NCBI GenBank assembly: GCA_036444275.1
Contig: JAZGAD010000010.1
Location: 1-64,000 of the forward strand
Direction: 5' to 3'
DNA: 64,000 bases
Source of the DNA: Candidatus Hydrothermarchaeales archaeon
GTDB lineage: Archaea > Hydrothermarchaeota > Hydrothermarchaeia > Hydrothermarchaeales > JAZGAD01
Below are positions 46,325-58,607 of the stretch, in pieces. Position 1 is the stretch's first letter. The number at the start of each line of letters is the position of its first letter. The notes below the pieces were generated by a model. That model did no database searches. It had not been told where the DNA came from and saw nothing but the letters and a program-made list of their open reading frames with translations. The position numbers were made by a program, and so were the translations under genes.

Positions 46325-46761
46325 GAATATAATAGTAGAACGACAGCGATAAATAATTGCAGGAGGGGAATTCGAAAACAAGTCTCTCTTTTTTAAGTTT
46401 CTTTCGGGTTCTGATAAGGGGACTGGGACTAGAAACTTTTTATATTTTCTTCGAGTTTCTGCTGTTTCTTAAAAATCCATATGAGCTTTTCCCCGTAACT
46501 CATGTTGTCCCACTTTTCTGGTTTCTCTATACTTTCCATGTTTTTAGCGGTTTTTCGGCGCCTATATTATAGCTTTCCTTCGTCTTCTTGAATACCAGAA
46601 ATCGAAACGCCTTAATATAAGAATTATCTCGTATGCTTATCTGGCAGAAGGTGGGCTGGTTATTATCCTAAGCTGGAGGTTCTAGTGTTAGTGTTAAACC
46701 GGCGATGAGTTTTTATTGAAGTGCTCGGATAAATTACGGATAATGGCGGAAATAAATAGGT

Positions 46762-47779
46762 ATGGATACGGCTGGGAGGATAACCGTCAGCTTCCCATAT
46801 AATCCTTCCTACATTACAAAGATAAAAAGCATAAAAGGTCACAGGTGGCATCCTGAAGAAAAATACTGGCGTGTGCCATACTCTGAGCTTGAAAACCTCT
46901 TATCTGTCTTTGATGGCGAGAAGGCTGATATCGACTCCGCTCTCTATTTCGAGCCCCTGAGAAAAGAGCTTGCATCGAGGAAGTACAGCCGGAGAACGAT
47001 GAAGATGTATCTGCAGTACAATGAGGATTTCTTGAGGTTTGCAAGGAAAACTCCTTACAAGATTTCCAATAGCGACGTGAGGGATTATCTGTATCACTTG
47101 GCGGAGGAGAGGGATGCATCTGCCTCTACCCTGAATATTGCTATAAATGCGTTGAAGTTCTACTATGGTGAGATCTTAAAGCGGGGGTTTGCTTATGGGA
47201 TTAAGAGGCCTAAGAAGGATAAGAAAATGCCCGTTGTATTAAGTCCGGAGGAAGTTTCCAAGATTTTATCTTCACTTTCAAACATCAAGCATAAAGCCAT
47301 TCTTATGCTTATGTATTCTGCTGGATTAAGAGTTGGTGAAGTTGTGAAGTTGAGGGTTGAGGATATAGATACTGGAAGAAAGTTAATTCATATCCGTGGT
47401 GGGAAAGGAAGGAAAGATCGCTATACTATACTTTCAGATGTTGCATTGGAGACCCTCAAAGTATATATCAACGCCTGCAATCCAGAAAATTGGCTTTTTC
47501 CTGGGGGGAAAGGATAGAGGGCATGTTACCACAAGAACTGTGCAAAGGATATTTGAAGATGCCGTCAGAGAGGTCGGTGTTGGCAAAGACGTTAGCGTTC
47601 ATTCTTTGAGACATAGCTTTGCAACACATCTATTAGAAAGCGGCGTAGATTTGAGGTATATTCAGGAATTGTTAGGGCACAAAAGCAGTAAAACGACAGA
47701 GATATACACTCATGTGAGCAACAAGTCTTGGAGCAGAATAAAAAGCCCTCTGGATCTAATTCAAAGAGGTGGGACATGA
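46762..47779 (+). pseudogene. Integron-associated tyrosine recombinase, split by one extra base in a G6 run (47503-47508)
   Basis: ORFs 46762-47517 and 47396-47779 join as [18 protein letters not shown] if one G is removed. Complete catalytic set: [38 protein letters not shown]; terminal SPLD; SAM-like domain YSRRT..Y..ASTLNIAINALKFYY. Confidence 0.9.
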
Positions 47780-47796: not shown

Positions 47797-47874
47797 CGGG
47801 ATGGGTATATGCGCAATGCAGATATAATTCTAAATAGGGATGATATACGCAATGCGTATATGAACGAGTTAGGC
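47797..47874 (+). other. Candidate attI recombination site
   Basis: Core GTTAGGC at 47868-47874, preceded by AAC. Upstream are two related palindromes: ATATACGCA-A-TGCGTATAT (47843-47861, perfect) and TATATGCGCA-A-TGCAGATATA (47806-47826), each preceded by GGGATG. No RYYYAAC-type attC arm is present. Confidence 0.75.
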
Positions 47875-47930
47875 GAAATTTTTAAATCGCCTTTATAAGA
47901 ACTTAAAAAAGGAATGTGAAATAGTTGAAT

Positions 47931-49325
47931 ATGAAAGCTTTAATACTTGCCGCTGGAGACGGTGGCAGATTGGGCAACTTAACTAAAAATAAACCCAAGC
48001 CCCTGATTAAACTTTTGGGATTAACTTTGATCGAAAGAGTAATATTAACTGCAAAACAAGCAGGCATTAAAGAATTCGTGATAGTTTTTGGTTATCTGGG
48101 TGACAAAATAAAAGCAAAATTGGGAACTGGAGATAGGTATGGAGTAGAAATAAACTATATCGAAAATAATGACTGCCAAAAAGAAAATGGGATCTCTGTA
48201 TTAAAGGCCAAAGGATTGTTAAATGAAAACTTCATCCTGTTAATGTCAGACCATATCTTTGATAATCGTATTCTGAAAGAACTTATCGATTATGATACAA
48301 AAAGTTCAGTTGTTTTAGCTATTGATAGAAGAAAATCTCTACCAGGAGACACAAAGGTTCTGGAGAAGGAAGGAAGAATTGTTGATATCGGTAAAAATAT
48401 AGAAGAATCAAACTGCATAGATACGGGTATCTTCTTGTGCTCACCAAAAATATTTTCTCATATTGAAGAAGCAGTAAAAGAAGGTAAAACTGAGCTTGCA
48501 CATGATATTGCTAAAGCTGTTAAGAACAGAGATGCAGAAATATTCGACATCACGCAAATTAACAGCTATATCCCGAGCATGCGGAAGGAGATTAAAGCTT
48601 TCTGGATAGATATTGATACAAAGGAGGATTTAATCAAAGCAAAAAAGCTTTTAATTGAGAATGCCTGTAAAGGACGAAATGACCTGCTTGCAACCTATGT
48701 GAATAAGCCAATAGAAAATTTTATTGTAAGCAGATTGGCGAACACGCAGATTACACCAAACCAGGTTACTATACTAACAAACATAGTTGCTTATACATCC
48801 ACATTTTTATTTCTCGAAGGATATCTATTGTTTGCTTCCATTCTCACCTTTATCGTTTCATTTATGGACGGTGTGGACGGAAAACTTTCAAGAGTGAAAA
48901 TAGCCTTTTCAAATATTGGGAAAATGGAGTACGCCTTCGATTTTCTTTATGAGCATTCATGGTATATCGCCTTAGCCATCTATCTATCAAAGGACTATGG
49001 ACTATCAGCGATTTTACTGTGCACATTCATACTCCTGTTTGATGGTTTTTCTCATTTTTGCAGACAGGCGTTTGGGAAGGCAATAAAGGACCGCCCATTA
49101 ACAGATTATGGACGAATTGAACGGCTATTCAGAAAATTTGATGGTAGGAAGAACAGTTATATAATTTTTATCTTAATAGGTGTTTTGCTAAATGCACCTT
49201 TCTGGTCATTAGTTGCAATATCTGTATGGTCATTGGTCAGTGCTATATTTTATTCTTCAAGGGCGATTTTGCATTTATATCGAGCCGATAAATCAACTCA
49301 GGGACCATATGGGAGCAAAAGATGA
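47931..49325 (+). CDS. Bifunctional IPCT/DIPPS-like protein (NTP transferase + CDP-alcohol phosphotransferase)
   Basis: KALILAAGDGGRL..KPKPL, ENGIS, MSDH, DTGIF, WIDIDT; then ITPNQVT and DGVDGKLSR..S.IG...D. Confidence 0.85.
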   Translation: MKALILAAGDGGRLGNLTKNKPKPLIKLLGLTLIERVILTAKQAGIKEFVIVFGYLGDKIKAKLGTGDRYGVEINYIENNDCQKENGISVLKAKGLLNENFILLMSDHIFDNRILKELIDYDTKSSVVLAIDRRKSLPGDTKVLEKEGRIVDIGKNIEESNCIDTGIFLCSPKIFSHIEEAVKEGKTELAHDIAKAVKNRDAEIFDITQINSYIPSMRKEIKAFWIDIDTKEDLIKAKKLLIENACKGRNDLLATYVNKPIENFIVSRLANTQITPNQVTILTNIVAYTSTFLFLEGYLLFASILTFIVSFMDGVDGKLSRVKIAFSNIGKMEYAFDFLYEHSWYIALAIYLSKDYGLSAILLCTFILLFDGFSHFCRQAFGKAIKDRPLTDYGRIERLFRKFDGRKNSYIIFILIGVLLNAPFWSLVAISVWSLVSAIFYSSRAILHLYRADKSTQGPYGSKR

Positions 49326-49402
49326 AGATAAGAATGATGTGGCTTGGGAAGGTCGTCAACGGACCTTCCATCCACCTGAAATTAGTAGGGAGGGCTTGAA
49401 CA

Positions 49403-50527
49403 ATGAAGATCGCTTACGTATCAACCTATCTCCCCAAACAGTGTGGGATAGCCACCTACACGGATTATCTCATTCACGGTCTCAGAGAGGTGGATCCGGC
49501 ATTGGAGATTAAGATCATTGCCGAACAAGGAGCATCTCCTATCAAACAAGATAAACTTGAAGTGATCCCCTCCTGGGATAGAAACGAGGATTATGTAGAA
49601 CCTATCATCTCACGCACAAAGGGTGCAGATGTAATCCACATTCAGCACGAATACGGCATATACAAATTTGATGATAGATTACCATTATTACTCCAGGGAT
49701 TGGACCCAGATGCCCGGAAGGTGATAACCATCCATTGCGTGAGACCAGCTCAGTTCTCCGAAAGAGATGCTGTAGATGAGAATTTTGCAGCAAAAATCGC
49801 TCAACTTGCCGATCAGGTCATCGTACACCTTGAGTCGCAAAAAGCAATCCTGACACGACTTGGAATACCATCAGGAAAGATTCACATTATTCCCCATGGA
49901 ACAGTGCTTAGTGATGAGGATAAAGAGGCTTCACGGAAGAGGCTCGGACTGCCCAAGGACGCAAAGATACTTCTCATGTTCGGGTTTGTCAAGAAACACA
50001 AGTGTTTACACATCGTTCTTGAGGCCCTCGTTGAGATATTGGAGAAATTCAAAGATATATATCTATTTGTGGCCGGAGGTCTTGCTCCAATAGCCTCACA
50101 GAAGGACAGGGACTATGCAGAATATGTGGGCAAGAGGATAGCGGAACTGGGGCTTCAGAAGAACGTCATCTACCCAAACAGGTTCTTTCCCAACGAAGAT
50201 GTGCCATATCTGTTGGGGGCATCTGACATTATCCTGTTTCCTTACTATGAGGAGGACCGCTCTGCCTCGGGCTCATTTCACCTGGCCATTGGTGCGAAAA
50301 AACCAGTTATTGCTTCGAGGATACCCAAGTTTGAAGAACTGAGAAATATCTGCGATGAACTTCTTGTCCTTCCGTATAACTCTTCGGGAATTGCAAAAGT
50401 AGTCATTCGTCTTTTTGAAGACTCAAAATTTCGGCAGTATGTAGTCAATCGCACCGAAGAATACAGAAATCTTACCTCCTGGCAAACCGTAGCGCACCAA
50501 CACTTGAAATTGTATAAGGGAGTTTGA
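49403..50527 (+). CDS. GT-B (GT4-like) glycosyltransferase
   Basis: STYLPKQCGIATYT, HIQHEYG, IPHG, FGFV..HK and SASG...LAIG..KPVIAS motifs. Confidence 0.88.
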   Translation: MKIAYVSTYLPKQCGIATYTDYLIHGLREVDPALEIKIIAEQGASPIKQDKLEVIPSWDRNEDYVEPIISRTKGADVIHIQHEYGIYKFDDRLPLLLQGLDPDARKVITIHCVRPAQFSERDAVDENFAAKIAQLADQVIVHLESQKAILTRLGIPSGKIHIIPHGTVLSDEDKEASRKRLGLPKDAKILLMFGFVKKHKCLHIVLEALVEILEKFKDIYLFVAGGLAPIASQKDRDYAEYVGKRIAELGLQKNVIYPNRFFPNEDVPYLLGASDIILFPYYEEDRSASGSFHLAIGAKKPVIASRIPKFEELRNICDELLVLPYNSSGIAKVVIRLFEDSKFRQYVVNRTEEYRNLTSWQTVAHQHLKLYKGV

Positions 50528-50528
50528 G

Positions 50529-51569
50529 ATGAAGATAGGAATGATGACCGCTTGGAACCAAGATGTAGGACCTTCTATTCATGCCGAGCTGATCGGCAGA
50601 GAATGGGTGAAGATGGGTCATGAGCTTAGAATTTTTTCCTTCCTTAAGTCAGATTTTCATGGCACAGCCATTGTTGGTCAGGATGAGGAGTATGTGCTCC
50701 GATGTTTTACTACATCTACGGCAGAAAGACCATTTTTGGATGCTCGTCCCTTCGTAGAATTCCATCCCGATATTTTCATTACCCAAGATCTTGGGACGTT
50801 GCCAATGGATGCTCTCGCAAAGATTTTCCACCTTATAAAAAAAGAAGCAAAGACGATAACCGTGATCCACGATCGAATGCTTTCATCAAATCCATCTTTT
50901 TATCAATTTGAATGGGATGCGATTATTTGTAGCGATAAAAGGTACGTAGAATTTCTTAAAGAGGCTTATCCAGAGGAAAAAATCTATGTAATACCCCATC
51001 CATACAATAAGTGGAGAGCCGGGGATAAGATTCGGGCAAGAAAGAAATTAGATCTGCCACTCGATAAGAAGATTATCCTGAACTTTGGTCAAAGAGTAAA
51101 GGATTTCAAAGAAACACTTCCTGCGATTTCCGAACTTCAGTCCAACTATCCGATTCTTGTTTTGGTAGTTACCAGAGAAGAAATAGAAGAACTCAGAAGA
51201 GAAACAACTTTACCAATTGAGATAAGGGAAGAGAGCCCATGTATAGAAAGGGTTTATGAGTATTTACACGCATCAGATGCCATGGTACTTCACCGTAAAT
51301 CTATTGAGGGGATTGTCTATTCAAGCACCACTTATCAGTGCTTAGGATCAGGTTGTTCCGTCGTTGCGCTAAACTCAAACTTCTTCCAGCCATTTGGTGT
51401 GGAAGTCTTAAAATATGATGACTTAGCGGGCTTAAAGGAGTGCCTAATCGATATATTTAAAGAAGGAAAAAGATATAAAACAGCAAAATTATTAGCGGAA
51501 AGGGTGGTAAAAAGAAATACTCCACAAGAGATAGCAACTAAATTCATTAAACTTTTTGAATCGCTGTGA
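50529..51569 (+). CDS. GT-B glycosyltransferase, paralog of 52326-53369
   Basis: MKIGMMTAWN.D.G..IHAE..G..W.KMGH, DFHG....DEEYV.RCF, FYQFEWD and SST.YQ.LG.GC are shared with the downstream paralog. Confidence 0.7.
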   Translation: MKIGMMTAWNQDVGPSIHAELIGREWVKMGHELRIFSFLKSDFHGTAIVGQDEEYVLRCFTTSTAERPFLDARPFVEFHPDIFITQDLGTLPMDALAKIFHLIKKEAKTITVIHDRMLSSNPSFYQFEWDAIICSDKRYVEFLKEAYPEEKIYVIPHPYNKWRAGDKIRARKKLDLPLDKKIILNFGQRVKDFKETLPAISELQSNYPILVLVVTREEIEELRRETTLPIEIREESPCIERVYEYLHASDAMVLHRKSIEGIVYSSTTYQCLGSGCSVVALNSNFFQPFGVEVLKYDDLAGLKECLIDIFKEGKRYKTAKLLAERVVKRNTPQEIATKFIKLFESL

Positions 51570-51710
51570 TGGGTAAAATGAAATCTAAAACTTTTGTTGG
51601 TAGAGAGAATAAATTAAAGCTACTGGAACACTATTTTGAAGAAACCATCAAAAACAAAAAAAGGCATTGTTATTTTGCTTACATGAGGAAATAGGTATTG
51701 GCAAACAGAC
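51569..51710 (+). pseudogene. 5' stub of an AAA/STAND ATPase gene
   Basis: MGKMKSKTFVGRENKLKLLEHYFEE, then a frameshifted Walker A remnant GIVILLT../EEIGIGK. Confidence 0.6.
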
Positions 51711-52042
51711 GCTTAACACCCTGGGGCAGCTGGCAGGTTCTTGCTGAAGGCCGAGAATATAAGGTAAAACTGATTAAAGTGAAGCCAGGGCACCGCTTTA
51801 GCCTCCAGTTGCATAATCGTAGAGATGAGCACTGGATGGTTGTTTCAGGTCAAGCAAGAGTAGAGATTGGAGACAAAACAGTTAAAGCTAAACCCGGAAA
51901 ATACATATTCATTCCTAAAAAGACGAAGCACCGGCTGCAAAATCCGGGAAAGAGTCGTCTCGTGGTAATTGAGGTTCAAAGGGGTAAATATCTAGAAGAG
52001 GACGATATTGTTCGCCAAGAAGATAATTATGGAAGGTCATGA
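51698..52042 (+). CDS. Mannose-6-phosphate isomerase type II cupin domain (ManC C-terminal-like)
   Basis: PWGSW, KVK.I.VKPG...SLQ.H..R.EHW.VV.G, HRL.NPG and IEVQ.G.YL.EDDIVR..D.YGR. Confidence 0.9.
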   Translation: MANRRLTPWGSWQVLAEGREYKVKLIKVKPGHRFSLQLHNRRDEHWMVVSGQARVEIGDKTVKAKPGKYIFIPKKTKHRLQNPGKSRLVVIEVQRGKYLEEDDIVRQEDNYGRS

Positions 52043-52302
52043 AACTTAATTCAGAGATTTTTAGAGAGCACGATATAAGGGGAGTGGTTGATAAGGACTT
52101 GGATCCGGAGGTGGTGGAAGAAATTGGTAGGGCCTTTGGGGCTTATATTGGGAAGGGTAAGGTGGCGGTAGGACAGAGGGGATATTGAGATAATGAGCAA
52201 AGATTTAAAACTTAGCAACTAGAGTTAGAAGAGATTAATGATATCTTCATCGAAAGGCTTAAGAAGTATCCTCAAATGGACATTAAGCCGTTTAGAGGAT
52301 AA
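52039..52302 (+). pseudogene. Phosphomannomutase/phosphoglucomutase gene with large internal deletion
   Basis: MKLNSEIFREHDIRGVVDKDLDPEVVEEIGRAFGAYIGKGKVAVG is the PMM/PGM N-terminus. It stops at 52188 and is followed by a probable C-terminal remnant LEEINDIFIERLKKYP. Confidence 0.8.
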
Positions 52303-52325
52303 TTATTTTGGAAGGAGGCTAGAGG

Positions 52326-53369
52326 ATGAGAATTGCTATGATGAGTGCTTGGAACACAGATAGTGGAGTAGCTGTACATGCAGAACCATTGGGCAAAGCC
52401 TGGATAAAGATGGGACATAAGTTAACTGTATTTACTTTCATCAAGGATGACTTCCATGGGGAGGGGTTTACCGGCGAAGATGAGGAGTATGTAGTCAGAT
52501 GTTTTGGCACTCAAGAGCATACCAACTTCTTAGACCCCCGGCCTATCCTCACCACGGACTTTGATATCTTCGTAGTTCAGGATTTAAGGATACTTCCAGT
52601 AGAAAAATTAGCCAAAGTATTTAGCCTGATTAAACAGCGGGCCATGACAATACATATAGTTCATGAAAATAAATTACCTGATGATGCCTGGTTTTATCAA
52701 TTTGACTGGGACAAGGTAGTCTATTTTGATCAGAGGCAGGAATTCCTAAAAGAGATATACCCTGACGCTAAACTTATCCCTTTTCCTTGTTATGAACTAA
52801 GAAGGCGTGATAAGCTTGAGGCAAAAAAGAGGTTAGAGCTCCCCCTGGATAAGAAAATCATCTACTCTTTTGGCCAACGCGGCTATCATTCCTATCTTCG
52901 AAACTTACCTGATGAGATTAAAGATAAGGCAGTGCTTCTACATGTTGTCTCCAAAGAATACCAGATGCTTGAAGAGGAATCTCCTCCCGATTGGATGATT
53001 ATTAGAAGAGAGGATGTTTTATCCCGCGAGAAATTTAATGACTATCTCTTTGCCTCGGATGCGGCTATTTTTCATAAGTTCCAGAGCCGTTATCATGCCG
53101 TTGTTTCCTCTACGGTCTTTCAGGCATTAGGTTGTGGTTGCCCAATCTTAGTTCCCCGGCAATCGGATTTCTTTCATCCTATGCAGAATGAGGTCATACG
53201 TTATGGAGATACTCCCGACTTAAATAGGAAGCTGCTTGAATTATTTGGAGATGAACAGACATCTCAAACAGTCCAAGACGCAGCAGAAGGGTTTGTGTCA
53301 ATGAATTCACCAGAAAAAATTGCCAAAAGGTATATCGGGCTATTTACTGAGGTCTTAAGAGCAAGATAA
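52326..53369 (+). CDS. GT-B glycosyltransferase, paralog of 50529-51569
   Basis: MRIAMMSAWNTDSGVAVHAE, DFHGE, FYQFDWD and SSTVFQALGCGCP; GGAGG RBS. Confidence 0.7.
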   Translation: MRIAMMSAWNTDSGVAVHAEPLGKAWIKMGHKLTVFTFIKDDFHGEGFTGEDEEYVVRCFGTQEHTNFLDPRPILTTDFDIFVVQDLRILPVEKLAKVFSLIKQRAMTIHIVHENKLPDDAWFYQFDWDKVVYFDQRQEFLKEIYPDAKLIPFPCYELRRRDKLEAKKRLELPLDKKIIYSFGQRGYHSYLRNLPDEIKDKAVLLHVVSKEYQMLEEESPPDWMIIRREDVLSREKFNDYLFASDAAIFHKFQSRYHAVVSSTVFQALGCGCPILVPRQSDFFHPMQNEVIRYGDTPDLNRKLLELFGDEQTSQTVQDAAEGFVSMNSPEKIAKRYIGLFTEVLRAR

Positions 53370-53404
53370 GATGTGCAAGAAAAATTTTATCATCGAGCCA
53401 TTTT

Positions 53405-53677
53405 GTGGATTATCCAAACAACCCAATTTTAGCTCCGGCAAAAGGTTTCACCTCACAAGGAATATATAACCCTACAGTGATTAAAGAAGGAAAAAAATTC
53501 TTTATGCTATTCAGGGCTGAGGCAGAAGATGAGTTGACGGGAAGGATAGGGCTTGCTAAAAGTAGTGATGGCATCCAATTTAGCTTGCACCCCGAACCAG
53601 TAATAGTGCCTTCTGCGGATTTCGATAAGTTCGGCTGTGAAGACCCCCGGGTGGTGAGATTTAAAGATACTAAGTAA
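53405..53677 (+). pseudogene. Truncated GH130-family glycosidase/phosphorylase (N-terminal 90 aa)
   Basis: NPIL.P, IYNP, MLFRA, RIGLA.S.DG..F and GCEDPRV, then an abrupt stop. Confidence 0.8.
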
Positions 53678-53680
53678 AAT

Positions 53681-53931
53681 GTGGGAAGAATCAAGATTGC
53701 TATTATAGGAGTAGGCAACTGCGCCAGTTCTCTGGTGCAAGGTTTATGGTTCTATAAAGATTCATCAGAAGAAAAAGTTATCGGCTTAATGCACTACGAT
53801 GTTGGTGGGTACAAGGTATGGGATTTGAGGTAGCGGCTGCCTTTGATATCGATAAGCGAAAGGTTGGCAAGCCCTTGAATGAGGCGATATTTGCCAGGCC
53901 GAACTGCAGGAGAATTTATAAAATTATTTAA
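53681..53931 (+). pseudogene. ino1: 5' fragment of myo-inositol-1-phosphate synthase, frameshifted
   Basis: [26 protein letters not shown]...[14 protein letters not shown] / [27 protein letters not shown]; frameshift near 53825. Confidence 0.85.
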
Positions 53932-53955
53932 CAAGTTGTTATAAGGGGTAATGTA

Positions 53956-55125
53956 ATGAACACTTTGGAAGAATTAGGAGATGGCAAGGTTATCGAAATC
54001 GAATCAGGAGCGACCATTTTTAAACTGGAGTCCGATGAAAAAAACCCTATTGTCAGACCCCAAGACCTCGGGCTCACCTGGAATGAGAATGGCGAATCGA
54101 AGATTGGGGCAGTTTTCAACGGTGGGGCTGAATTTTTCGAGAATAAGGTTATTCTTTTGCCAAGGTGTCATAGAGATTACCGAAAGGGCGAATTCTTTGA
54201 CGAAAAGTTAGGCATTGAGAGGACCTGCCTGGAAAACTACATTTCCGAGGTTTGGCCTTTGGTGAGCGAGGATGGCGTCCACTTCACCAGATTCCATAAC
54301 GTGGTAATCCGGGGCGATGGCACCGACCATCAGGACTTTACCTACGGAATAGAGGACATCCGAATCGTTAAGTACGGCCGGAGATACCTGCTGATCGGGT
54401 GTGGGAAGATAAAACCTCCGTTTAAAGGCGGCAATGCGGATCGAATTGCCATTTACACAACCAAAGATTTTGTGAAGATTAACTATCAGGGCATAGTGGA
54501 CTCCTTTGACTCGCGCAATGCGGTTCCCTTCTCCGAGCCGGTAAATGGACAACACTGGATACTCCTGCGTTTTCATACTAATATTCACATAGATTTTCTT
54601 GAAGCCGGCATAAATCAATTGCTGAATCCTTCCCAGCACACAGAACAGTGGGATGAAATCTATGAGCGACAGAGCCAGAATCTCCTTTTAGAAGCTGGGC
54701 ACTACCCGCACGAAAAGCAGAAAATCGGCCCGGGCCCCCAGGTGCTCAGAACCGATAGGGGTTGGTTGCTCATCTACCATGCTGTTGGTGAGATAGAATA
54801 TAATATCTGCAAAGCCTACGGGTTGACGGAAAAAATTGAAAGAGGATACTCCATCTGCGCTGCCCTTTTGGACTTAGACGATCCACGAAAGGTGCTTTGT
54901 CGAACCAGAAATCCAATCTATATTCCTTCAACCCCTTACGAATTATATGGTAACGATCAATATCCAGTGGATGTGTCTGCAGTCGTTTTTCCCATGGGTG
55001 CTATTGTTCGAAAAGAAAAACTGATTCTCTATGCCGGAGCTGGCGATAAATACATCATCCTTTTGAGCTGCGATCTTGATAACTTAGTTAATTATTTATG
55101 GGAGTATTGCAAGTACATTGCATAG
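53956..55125 (+). CDS. GH130-like beta-propeller glycosidase/mannoside phosphorylase
   Basis: NPIVRP, AVFNGG, GIEDIRI, KIGPG, GWLLIYHAV, ALLDLDDPRKV, VVFPMG and YAGAGD motifs. Confidence 0.82.
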   Translation: MNTLEELGDGKVIEIESGATIFKLESDEKNPIVRPQDLGLTWNENGESKIGAVFNGGAEFFENKVILLPRCHRDYRKGEFFDEKLGIERTCLENYISEVWPLVSEDGVHFTRFHNVVIRGDGTDHQDFTYGIEDIRIVKYGRRYLLIGCGKIKPPFKGGNADRIAIYTTKDFVKINYQGIVDSFDSRNAVPFSEPVNGQHWILLRFHTNIHIDFLEAGINQLLNPSQHTEQWDEIYERQSQNLLLEAGHYPHEKQKIGPGPQVLRTDRGWLLIYHAVGEIEYNICKAYGLTEKIERGYSICAALLDLDDPRKVLCRTRNPIYIPSTPYELYGNDQYPVDVSAVVFPMGAIVRKEKLILYAGAGDKYIILLSCDLDNLVNYLWEYCKYIA

Positions 55126-55149
55126 GAACTACCATTGACTTGGCACATC

Positions 55150-55219
55150 GCCTAACAACGGCTAAAAGGCTCCGCCCAAATTTGCTCCGCTAACTTCTTT
55201 TATCCGCAATACGTTAGGT
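55150..55219 (+). other. attC site 1
   Basis: R'' GCCTAAC (55150-56), R' GTTAGGT (55213-19); inner arms CGGCTAAAAG / CTTTTATCCG. Confidence 0.8.
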
Positions 55220-55267
55220 GAAATGCCTAAGCCCGCTTTGATGGTAAAATTAAAATAAGAATATGTC

Positions 55268-55929: not shown

Positions 55930-56005
55930 GGTCTATAATATTCGGTAGGCTTGGGTACTCTGCGGATTTGCATTGCAAATCCTTGCCCTCGCTATCGCTC
56001 GGGTC

Positions 56006-56156
56006 GCCTAACAGGCGGGTATGCGGTTCGAAATGATGAAAAGTGGTCTCACCCAGATTCCTTTGACAACGGTTATATTCAGCTTTCACATTGCTCTCAC
56101 CTGATGAAATCGGGATGCTCGCAGTCGGCACTTCGCATACCCGCGAAACGTTAGAC
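56006..56156 (+). other. attC site 2
   Basis: R'' GCCTAAC (56006-12), R' GTTAGAC (56150-56); perfect 11-bp arms GCGGGTATGCG / CGCATACCCGC. Confidence 0.82.
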
Positions 56157-56200
56157 GCAATAAATTTCAATAGTTTGATTTTATATGGAGATATACAATC

Positions 56201-56635: not shown

Positions 56636-56645
56636 AATTTACATC

Positions 56646-56729
56646 GCCTAACAGAGCGTATCTGGTTCGCTATCGCTCACCTAAATCTCTCCCGTTGCCT
56701 GAACTTCAGATACGCTCGGAACGTTATAT
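56646..56729 (+). other. attC site 3
   Basis: R'' GCCTAAC (56646-52), R' GTTATAT (56723-29); perfect 11-bp arms GAGCGTATCTG / CAGATACGCTC. Confidence 0.85.
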
Positions 56730-56785
56730 GCAATTTCAAAGAAGTTACTATTCCCCAATTTGAGTTATTAAAGGAGGTCTAACTT

Positions 56786-57697: not shown

Positions 57698-57735
57698 GAT
57701 TATTACTCAAATAACTCAAATTATGATGAAACGGC

Positions 57736-57798
57736 GTATAACAGAGCATACCTGGCTTCGTGCCTTCGGCGGACTTCAGATACACGCAACCGTTAAGT
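57736..57798 (+). other. attC site 4
   Basis: R'' GTATAAC (57736-42), R' GTTAAGT (57792-98); imperfect arms GAGCATACCTG / CAGATACACGC, closely related to attC3. Confidence 0.78.
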
Positions 57799-57839
57799 GA
57801 AAAAGCCCAAAGTTTATTGAATTAAAATGAGGCAAATCC

Positions 57840-58364: not shown

Positions 58365-58377
58365 TATGGGCTTCTTC

Positions 58378-58453
58378 GCCTAACAGTGTGTTTGCGAAGT
58401 GCCGAAGGCATTTGGGTGAGCATGATGCACCGCAAACACACGAACCATTACGC
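58378..58453 (+). other. attC site 5 (terminal, degenerate R')
   Basis: R'' GCCTAAC (58378-84); perfect 11-bp arms GTGTGTTTGCG / CGCAAACACAC; the R' position reads ATTACGC (58447-53). Confidence 0.75.
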
Positions 58454-58607
58454 GACATTGCGAAATATAAGAATTTGCGTCTTTTAGATATTCAAAATGG
58501 AAATTTCAGGCGCAGTTATTCTTGAATACCAAAAGTGACCTAGTGAATTTCCTAAATACTTAAATACAATCCATAATCCCTTTTTATTATCTGAATGGGG
58601 ACGAAGT

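Follow-up and report, generated by a model that had tools for sequence, protein, structure and literature searches.

A decayed XerA/IntI-like tyrosine recombinase gene with a HARP-like N-terminal domain beside attC-like sites in a Hydrothermarchaeales archaeon

Integrons are in practice defined by the integrase IntI with its specific insertion. The initial annotation of a 64,000-nucleotide stretch from contig JAZGAD010000010.1 of a Candidatus Hydrothermarchaeales archaeon (the window) pointed to a recombinase gene in which this insertion appeared to be missing, and in which about 55 residues in front of the SAM-like domain resembled the HARP domain of SMARCAL1-type annealing helicases. It was suggested that this segment could functionally replace the insertion in the recognition of folded attC DNA. 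The locus raises the question of what the segment is, what kind of recombinase carries it and what its role would be.

The recombinase gene and its decay

The open reading frame at 46762-47517 on the forward strand is translated to a 251-residue protein (MDTAGRITVSFPYNPSYITKIKSIKGHRWHPEEKYWRVPYSELENLLSVFDGEK...), and the peptide on which the initial annotation was based could be found as residues 7-50 of this translation. The gene continues in a second frame, and its parts are the following.

46743-46761, + strand: probable remnant of the ancestral start, an ATG reading MAEIN..., out of frame with the ORF (sequence and homologue P0032)
46762-46941, + strand: HARP-like N-terminal domain, residues 1-60, with the folded core (residues 6-49) at 46777-46908
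46951-47184, + strand: SAM-like core-binding domain PF13495 (Phage_int_SAM_4), residues 64-141 (Pfam, E 6.2e-19)
47236-47505, + strand: first part of the tyrosine-recombinase catalytic domain, PF00589 positions 2-99 (Pfam, E 2.8e-19)
47503-47517, + strand: frameshift site, a run of six G (47503-47508) and then a premature TAG (47515-47517)
47510-47779, + strand: remainder of the catalytic domain in the shifted frame, PF00589 positions 103-170 (Pfam, E 1.4e-22)

PF13495 and PF00589 were thus matched over two frames, and the R, HxxR, H and Y motifs of a tyrosine recombinase are visible, the shifted-frame part carrying the HSLRH, LGH and EIYTHV tyrosine motifs. In the 251-residue ORF, Pfam assigned residues 64-141 to the SAM-like domain and residues 159-248 to the first part of the catalytic domain, so the N-terminal segment lies outside the known recombinase domains. 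The extension described earlier exists; the SAM-like domain is preceded by about 63 residues here and by about 75 in the intact homologues.

The window copy is broken by the extra G at 47503-47508, and it is probably also broken at its 5' end. The ATG at 46743 opens the MAEIN frame and the N-terminus of homologue P0032 is MAEIKISRDTAGRITVSF, therefore the ancestral start was probably 19 nt upstream of the ORF; judging from the sequence, it was probably lost through a small insertion or deletion within the A-rich stretch around 46750-46757. A real start downstream of the segment, which would have counted against the original idea, is not indicated. A 526-nt contig from the public hot-spring run X1, 96% alike, spans the frameshift with one letter fewer at 47503; with this length the frame stays open, as it does in all homologues. 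Since this contig comes from a relative at a depth of 3.4, of another strain, the extra G of the window may be real or an assembly error.

When the whole genome was searched with an intact homologue, the two halves of the gene were obtained as separate matches and no other copy was seen. Models of the Xer/IntI type matched only the broken gene in the assembled 1.49 Mb (81% complete), and neither the homologue search nor the models detected a separate XerA or other Xer-type gene in this assembly. The neighbouring genes, among them an archaeal-type LonB (TIGR00764, 941 bits), mark the host as an archaeon.

The recombinase core was compared with the models of the two nearest families. The IntI model TIGR02249 was matched at positions 4-178 and 233-313, positions 179-232 being opposite only about 13 residues; these 54 positions are the IntI-specific region, which has no counterpart in the window gene, and the absence of the insertion was therefore confirmed. 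The intact homologues scored 216-235 bits against TIGR02249, in two stretches and below the cut-off of 265, and 222-245 bits against the archaeal XerA model NF040815 (XerA_Arch, cut-off 220), over model positions 3-261 of 263. The truncated ORF of the window reached 141.8 bits with NF040815. Both family models begin only at residue 65-75 or so, after the HARP-like module, in agreement with the earlier remark that classical IntI and Xer proteins have no such module.

The HARP-like domain and the family that carries it

HARP (PF07443, a model of 55 positions with a Pfam gathering cut-off of 25 bits) was the sole Pfam match at E<=10 of the isolated 60 amino acids, with an E value of 0.0031 and residues 8-48 aligned to model positions 2-42. 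The gathering cut-off was not reached, the score being 17.5 bits for the 60 amino acids alone and 14.1 bits within the 251-aa ORF. HARP was also matched at E<=1 by 21 of the 23 homologues (best E 5.2e-4), and F11, P12, Y13, N14, K22, G26, W29, H30 and W36 are invariant among 18 aligned N-termini. When the profile of these 18 was run against 177,635 distinct PDB sequences, the single match at E<=10 was 4O66, the HARP domain of SMARCAL1 (E 0.23); the larger untrimmed profile A5 (101 sequences) missed 4O66 in the PDB and returned only a spurious match to uS19 (E 0.98).

The fold obtained with AlphaFold2 was beta-alpha-beta-beta-alpha, with a mean pLDDT of 79.4 from 18 sequences and 82.8 from 101 sequences. 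In the Foldseek comparison with 350,542 PDB chains, by which the suggested likeness was examined at the structural level, 4O66_A and 4O66_C of SMARCAL1 HARP came out on top for both models, with prob 0.97 and 0.99, E values of 0.19 and 0.056 and a TMq of 0.62, and no further match exceeded prob 0.60. The rmsd to this crystal structure was high, 6.6-7.5 Å. Among the predicted viral structures of BFVD the leading matches (prob 0.99-1.00) were a 'HepA-related protein' of a Bacillus phage, proteins annotated as 'SWI/SNF-related...' and 'HepA-related protein (HARP)', and DUF5710 proteins, the best of them with TMq 0.72-0.78 and an rmsd of 1.2-1.5 Å at 20-33% identity. An E value of 0.001 or lower was reached by no Foldseek match in the PDB or BFVD.

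Phage sequences pointed in the same direction. When the 60 residues were compared by tblastn with 50,697 phage records, 28 records gave weak matches (E 0.002-1), located in 'HepA-related protein' and at the N-terminal ends of SNF2 helicases; in one of the 28, gp33 of Clostridium phage phiCTP1, HARP (E 1.6e-4) is followed by SNF2. In the ESM Atlas a SWI/SNF-related cluster was found at rank 2 (0.92) and another cluster with 21% PF07443 at 0.83. PHROGs held no family for the 60 amino acids of the window, and DUF5710 fitted some repeats of the multi-copy relatives better than HARP did (P0159, E 6e-8). The domains next to the module in the window gene are Phage_int_SAM_4 and Phage_integrase and not a SNF2 ATPase motor.

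The N-terminal segment is thus a conserved folded domain and not chance sequence. Its fold is of the HARP type, and a distant homology to HARP is likely. The resemblance noted at the outset stood as regards the type of fold (Pfam, Foldseek, 21 of 23 homologues), but not as formal membership in PF07443, the match being sub-threshold and weak in sequence.

The domain is widespread. In a word-seeded search with residues 1-70, 34 of the 41 scored candidates were significant at E<=0.001, and the full-length homologues, 329-398 residues long, have the same N-terminus. The domain profile, applied to 1.84 billion sequences, retrieved 2734 cluster representatives at E<=0.001, 655 of them reaching E<=1e-10. 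Tandem modules in 2, 3 and 4 copies before the SAM-like and catalytic domains occur among the matches listed (P0163, P0165 and P0093). Among the 120 proteins closest in the core domains (at least 67% identity), 85 have the module. As for the 35 without it, 6 begin within the last helix of the module, 20 begin at the SAM-like domain or within the linker, 8 show a different short N-terminus and one is a fusion. Of the 20, at least P0266 has an annotated start that is called too late, since its contig encodes the module in frame (L033).

The linker between the module and the SAM-like domain varies from about 5 to about 60 residues. In several of the linkers of P0029, P0033, P0034, P0238, P0241 and P0281, strings such as VIARDKVPKQSH recur, resembling a DNA repeat translated in frame.

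Genomic neighbourhoods were studied at 48 loci, obtained by a scan of one genome per species and chosen by the HARP motif; these loci are related and their counts are not independent. The archaeal ones belong to Methanosarcinales, Methanophagales, Thermoplasmata, Nitrosotalea, Archaeoglobaceae, Halobacteria and Altiarchaeales, and the bacterial ones to Dehalococcoidia, WOR-3, Nitrospirae, Thermodesulfobacteriota, Myxococcota, Atribacterota and Actinomycetota. Several genomes have two or three loci, and many contigs stop inside the gene. According to tblastn, 15 copies look intact, 7 are cut by the contig end and approximately 26 are frameshifted, internally deleted or remnants, so the broken copy of the window is typical. 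Internal deletions by which the C-terminal end is fused in frame to the N-terminal module, or to the front part of the gene, were seen in many decayed copies, namely in L012, L014, L020, L031, L034, L043 and L044.

Attachment sites and relatives without the module

Five attC-like sites were found in the window by repeat search and a covariance model.

55143-55227, + strand: attC-like site 1
55999-56164, + strand: attC-like site 2
56639-56737, + strand: attC-like site 3
57729-57806, + strand: attC-like site 4
58371-58461, + strand: attC-like site 5

All five are on the strand of the recombinase, and a small gene precedes each of them. The sites have ends of the GCCTAAC...GTTAGGY type, an inner helix of 11 bp and, between the two helices, an asymmetric internal loop of 2 nt versus 5-6 nt. 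The covariance model, trained on the five sites of the window only, returned within the window these sites, one reverse-strand echo and nothing else. In the 1.49 Mb of the own genome it detected three single sites outside the array, with E values from 2e-10 to 8e-5.

C27, 20839-20944, - strand: stray attC-like site (covariance model)
C13, 11934-12042, - strand: stray attC-like site (covariance model)
C60, 26648-26743, + strand: stray attC-like site (covariance model)

In the 48 homologous loci (365,590 bases) 38 sites were detected at E<0.01, and all 38 were on the recombinase strand. In 30 loci the sequence extends at least 1.4 kb past the module start; 21 of these have a downstream site, usually 1.4-2.7 kb from that start, and in the other 9 the covariance model found none. 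In L018 and L021 the upstream sites come after the remnant of another recombinase copy. In these loci, chosen by the HARP motif, the sites are about 50-fold enriched beside the recombinase gene in comparison with the own genome, and always co-oriented. The co-occurrence of the extension with attC arrays, proposed as a check of the original idea, was thus observed.

In the alignment of 37 matches (36 sites and the reverse-strand echo) 90.1% of the cells were paired. The covariation score was 0.44, as against 0.16 for shuffled alignments (0 of 500 reached the observed value) and 0.04-0.10 when the structure was slid, all from an alignment which was fitted to the model and which therefore favours the structure. 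In the inner helix 9 of the 11 pairs showed compensatory change on both sides. The attC-like sites are structured; covariation does not by itself imply recombination activity.

Immediately behind the stop codon, the window and most of the homologous loci have an attI-like layout.

47804-47874, + strand: attI-like region with two palindromic boxes (47804-47827, imperfect, and 47842-47861), the spacer GAACGA and the core GTTAGGC (47868-47874)

Over 27 such regions 37 palindromes were observed, as against 11.4 expected from shuffles. Two or three boxes of about 24 bp, whose halves co-vary between loci, followed by a GAACGA-type spacer and a GTTAGGC-type core, were seen just after the recombinase stop in the window and in L003, L009, L016, L017, L020, L025, L031, L038, L039, L043 and L049. 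The palindromic boxes after the stop were also considered as targets of the HARP-like domain; this assignment was not adopted, the HARP-less relatives having a similar box beside the core.

The distance from the stop codon to the nearest site is 7.4 kb in the window versus 0.4-1.7 kb in most homologous loci. In the window the interval from the attI-like core to the first attC-like site (47868-55152) is filled exactly by 7.3 kb of sugar- and inositol-phosphate genes, in which the covariance model found no attC-like site. This block may represent a single, very large cassette of several genes, or else successive cassettes with decayed sites.

A second sample was selected by the recombinase core and not by HARP, in a metagenome scan seeded with a module-less homologue. 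In the 80 loci obtained the covariance model detected 31 sites at E<0.01, in 19 loci. Six loci with sites on the same strand as the recombinase encode the module (L054, L072, L077, L099, L112 and L115). The five others whose sites share the recombinase strand gave no match to the module: four (L061, L065, L129 and L132) lack the 5' part of the gene, and the fifth, L081, showed none in the 312 bases available upstream.

The remaining eight loci (L063, L083, L090, L101, L105, L122, L123 and L126) have recombinases of 267-290 aa with 41-49% identity (one open frame is 497 aa), no HARP at E<=0.01, and a motif spacing of 62-64 residues in seven of the eight (no value for L126), which means that they have no insertion either. 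All 15 of their sites lie upstream on the opposite strand, the classical divergent layout. A single palindromic box and a TTAAC core were seen about 60-80 nt ahead of the start codon in these loci. Since the eight loci have sites, an integrase without the insertion can adjoin attC-like arrays also without HARP. The HARP module goes with the co-oriented layout, in related loci whose counts are not independent events. Another module-less variant, L059, is 99% identical to P0187 and starts with MKRILVSIPDGAW; as it is interrupted by stop codons, at least some of the module-less copies are dead.

The putative role of the module and its meaning

The explanation which we consider likely is that the gene is a decayed member of a widespread, insertion-less XerA/IntI-like family, and that the HARP-fold module is an accessory nucleic-acid-binding domain of a non-canonical integron integrase. 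The sequence at 46762-47779 holds a decayed copy of a tyrosine recombinase without the IntI-specific insertion, and the N-terminus typical of the family is a HARP-fold domain of about 55 residues on a linker of variable length. Intact members head co-oriented arrays, in which small genes are separated by attC-like hairpins, with an attI-like site after the stop codon of the recombinase. Since intact members head such arrays and the attI-like site follows the stop, they are proposed to act as the integrase of a non-canonical integron. On its flexible tether the HARP-like module may help the enzyme to engage either the hairpins or junctions of attC and attI or the additional attI boxes. A capacity of the module to bind DNA and to take part in recombination is suggested by its fold; HARP-carrying helicases bind fork DNA, as stated in the accessible parts of two reports (PMC5416776, PMC13728640).

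Four other explanations were weighed. The first, which has a modest chance of being correct, regards the module as an arm-type accessory domain that would bind the duplex palindromic attI boxes and control synapsis or direction, like the N-domain of lambda Int. The two or three palindromic boxes before the GTTAGGC core in the window and in most homologous loci are consistent with such a role, as are the variable, presumably flexible linker and the relatives with 2-4 tandem modules. Like the arm-binding N-domains of lambda-type integrases, which are grouped in Pfam clan CL0081 according to an excerpt of Smyshlyaev 2021 (PMC8138268), the module is a small N-terminal addition before the core-binding domain of a recombinase, and it is a putative DNA binder. 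Unlike them, it has a fold that fits HARP, and the Pfam scan of the window gene gave no arm-binding family at E<=10. Moreover, the HARP-less relatives also show a palindromic box, spacer and core beside the gene, and because of this it is probably the core domains that bind at least the core-proximal box.

Doubtful, too, is a wider proposal, in which HARP-fold modules would represent a second, independent way to recombine folded single-stranded hairpins, reading the junction or the unpaired spacer instead of using the IntI insertion. They would then define a large integron class missed by the finders, in Archaea and many bacterial phyla, which would explain many 'integrase-less' attC clusters. 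As regards the present module, it seems unlikely that it is a structure-specific reader of the folded attC strand (of the unpaired spacer or a hairpin base) which functionally replaces the IntI insertion, as originally suggested. The insertion is indeed absent, the sites are structured with the asymmetric internal loop of 2 nt versus 5-6 nt, the SMARCAL1 protein has high affinity for fork DNA in the section available of PMC5416776, and the conserved Y13, W29, H30, W36, K22 and K34 would suit contacts with unpaired bases. Nevertheless, the eight loci whose recombinases have neither HARP nor the insertion hold 15 sites of the same model, so arrays of this kind do not require HARP.

It is quite improbable that the likeness to HARP is convergent or due to chance, and that the module is a small alpha/beta domain of other origin, for example one for protein-protein contact or for recruiting a host factor. 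Such an origin would agree with the sub-threshold level of all the sequence scores, with the high rmsd to 4O66 and its loss from the A5 profile, and with the fact that small beta-alpha-beta-beta-alpha folds are common among the lower Foldseek matches. On the other hand, five routes favour HARP first, namely Pfam, the PDB profile, Foldseek on two libraries, the phage tblastn and the ESM Atlas, and the phage matches have an rmsd of only 1.2-1.5 Å at 20-33% identity. Finally, that the gene is the XerA chromosome-dimer resolvase of the host with an odd extension, coincidentally near the array, is hardly credible, although the intact homologues pass the XerA_Arch equivalog cut-off and the 81%-complete assembly has no other Xer/IntI-type gene: instead of a single housekeeping copy at dif, we found a gene that is broken here, frameshifted, deleted or reduced to remnants in approximately 26 of the 48 loci, present in two or three copies in several genomes, often at contig ends which fall within it, patchy across archaeal and bacterial phyla, and linked to arrays, with about 50-fold enriched sites always co-oriented.

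The preferred reading, a non-canonical integron integrase with an accessory HARP-fold module, can be compared with the known systems. As in the classical integrons (IntI, attI, attC), a recombinase of the Xer/IntI branch adjoins an array of small genes with an imperfect hairpin site after each gene, the site ends are of the RYYYAAC...GTTRRRY type (GCCTAAC...GTTAGGY here), and an attI-like core lies beside the recombinase gene. Unlike classical IntI, the family lacks the IntI-specific insertion and has the N-terminal HARP-fold domain; and in contrast to the classical integrons, its gene is co-oriented with the cassettes and the attI-like site is downstream of the stop codon. The co-orientation of integrase and array is shared with the 'reverse' integrons of Spirochaetota, whose typical IntIs are described in part of Ghaly 2022 (PMC9668308) as 'generally in reverse orientation'; those enzymes, compared here by description only, differ in being IntIs with the specific domain. 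With their core-binding and catalytic domains the intact homologues score above the equivalog cut-off of archaeal XerA (NF040815), the truncated ORF of the window below it; the N-terminal module lies outside that model, and the family, being multi-copy, often decayed and array-linked, is not housekeeping-like.

The beta-alpha-beta-beta-alpha fold and the F.Y...G.RW....K.W..P pattern are common to the module, to SMARCAL1 HARP (PF07443; 4O66) and to the N-termini of phage SNF2 helicases, and the tandem modules of the relatives recall the 'dual HARP domains' of SMARCAL1 mentioned in the consulted portion of PMC13728640. In contrast to the SMARCAL1 and phage HARP domains, the module is attached to a tyrosine recombinase and not to a SNF2 motor, it stays below the Pfam cut-off, and its DNA binding is putative. 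[quoted passage not shown] A published account of a HARP-domain tyrosine recombinase, or of such an integron integrase, was not found in full-text searches of the openly available literature.

IntegronFinder requires an IntI-specific profile, as far as the excerpted text of Ghaly 2022 (PMC9668308) goes; therefore insertion-less genes of this kind would escape IntI calling. An insertion-less HARP-fold family which heads co-oriented attC-like arrays would be the enzyme that some of the integrase-less arrays lack. The family spans Archaea and Bacteria, with its 2734 cluster representatives, and points to an undescribed type of integron enzyme. It would give a new model for the handling of structured DNA by tyrosine recombinases, and would extend the HARP fold from the remodellers of replication forks, in which it is known, to site-specific recombination.
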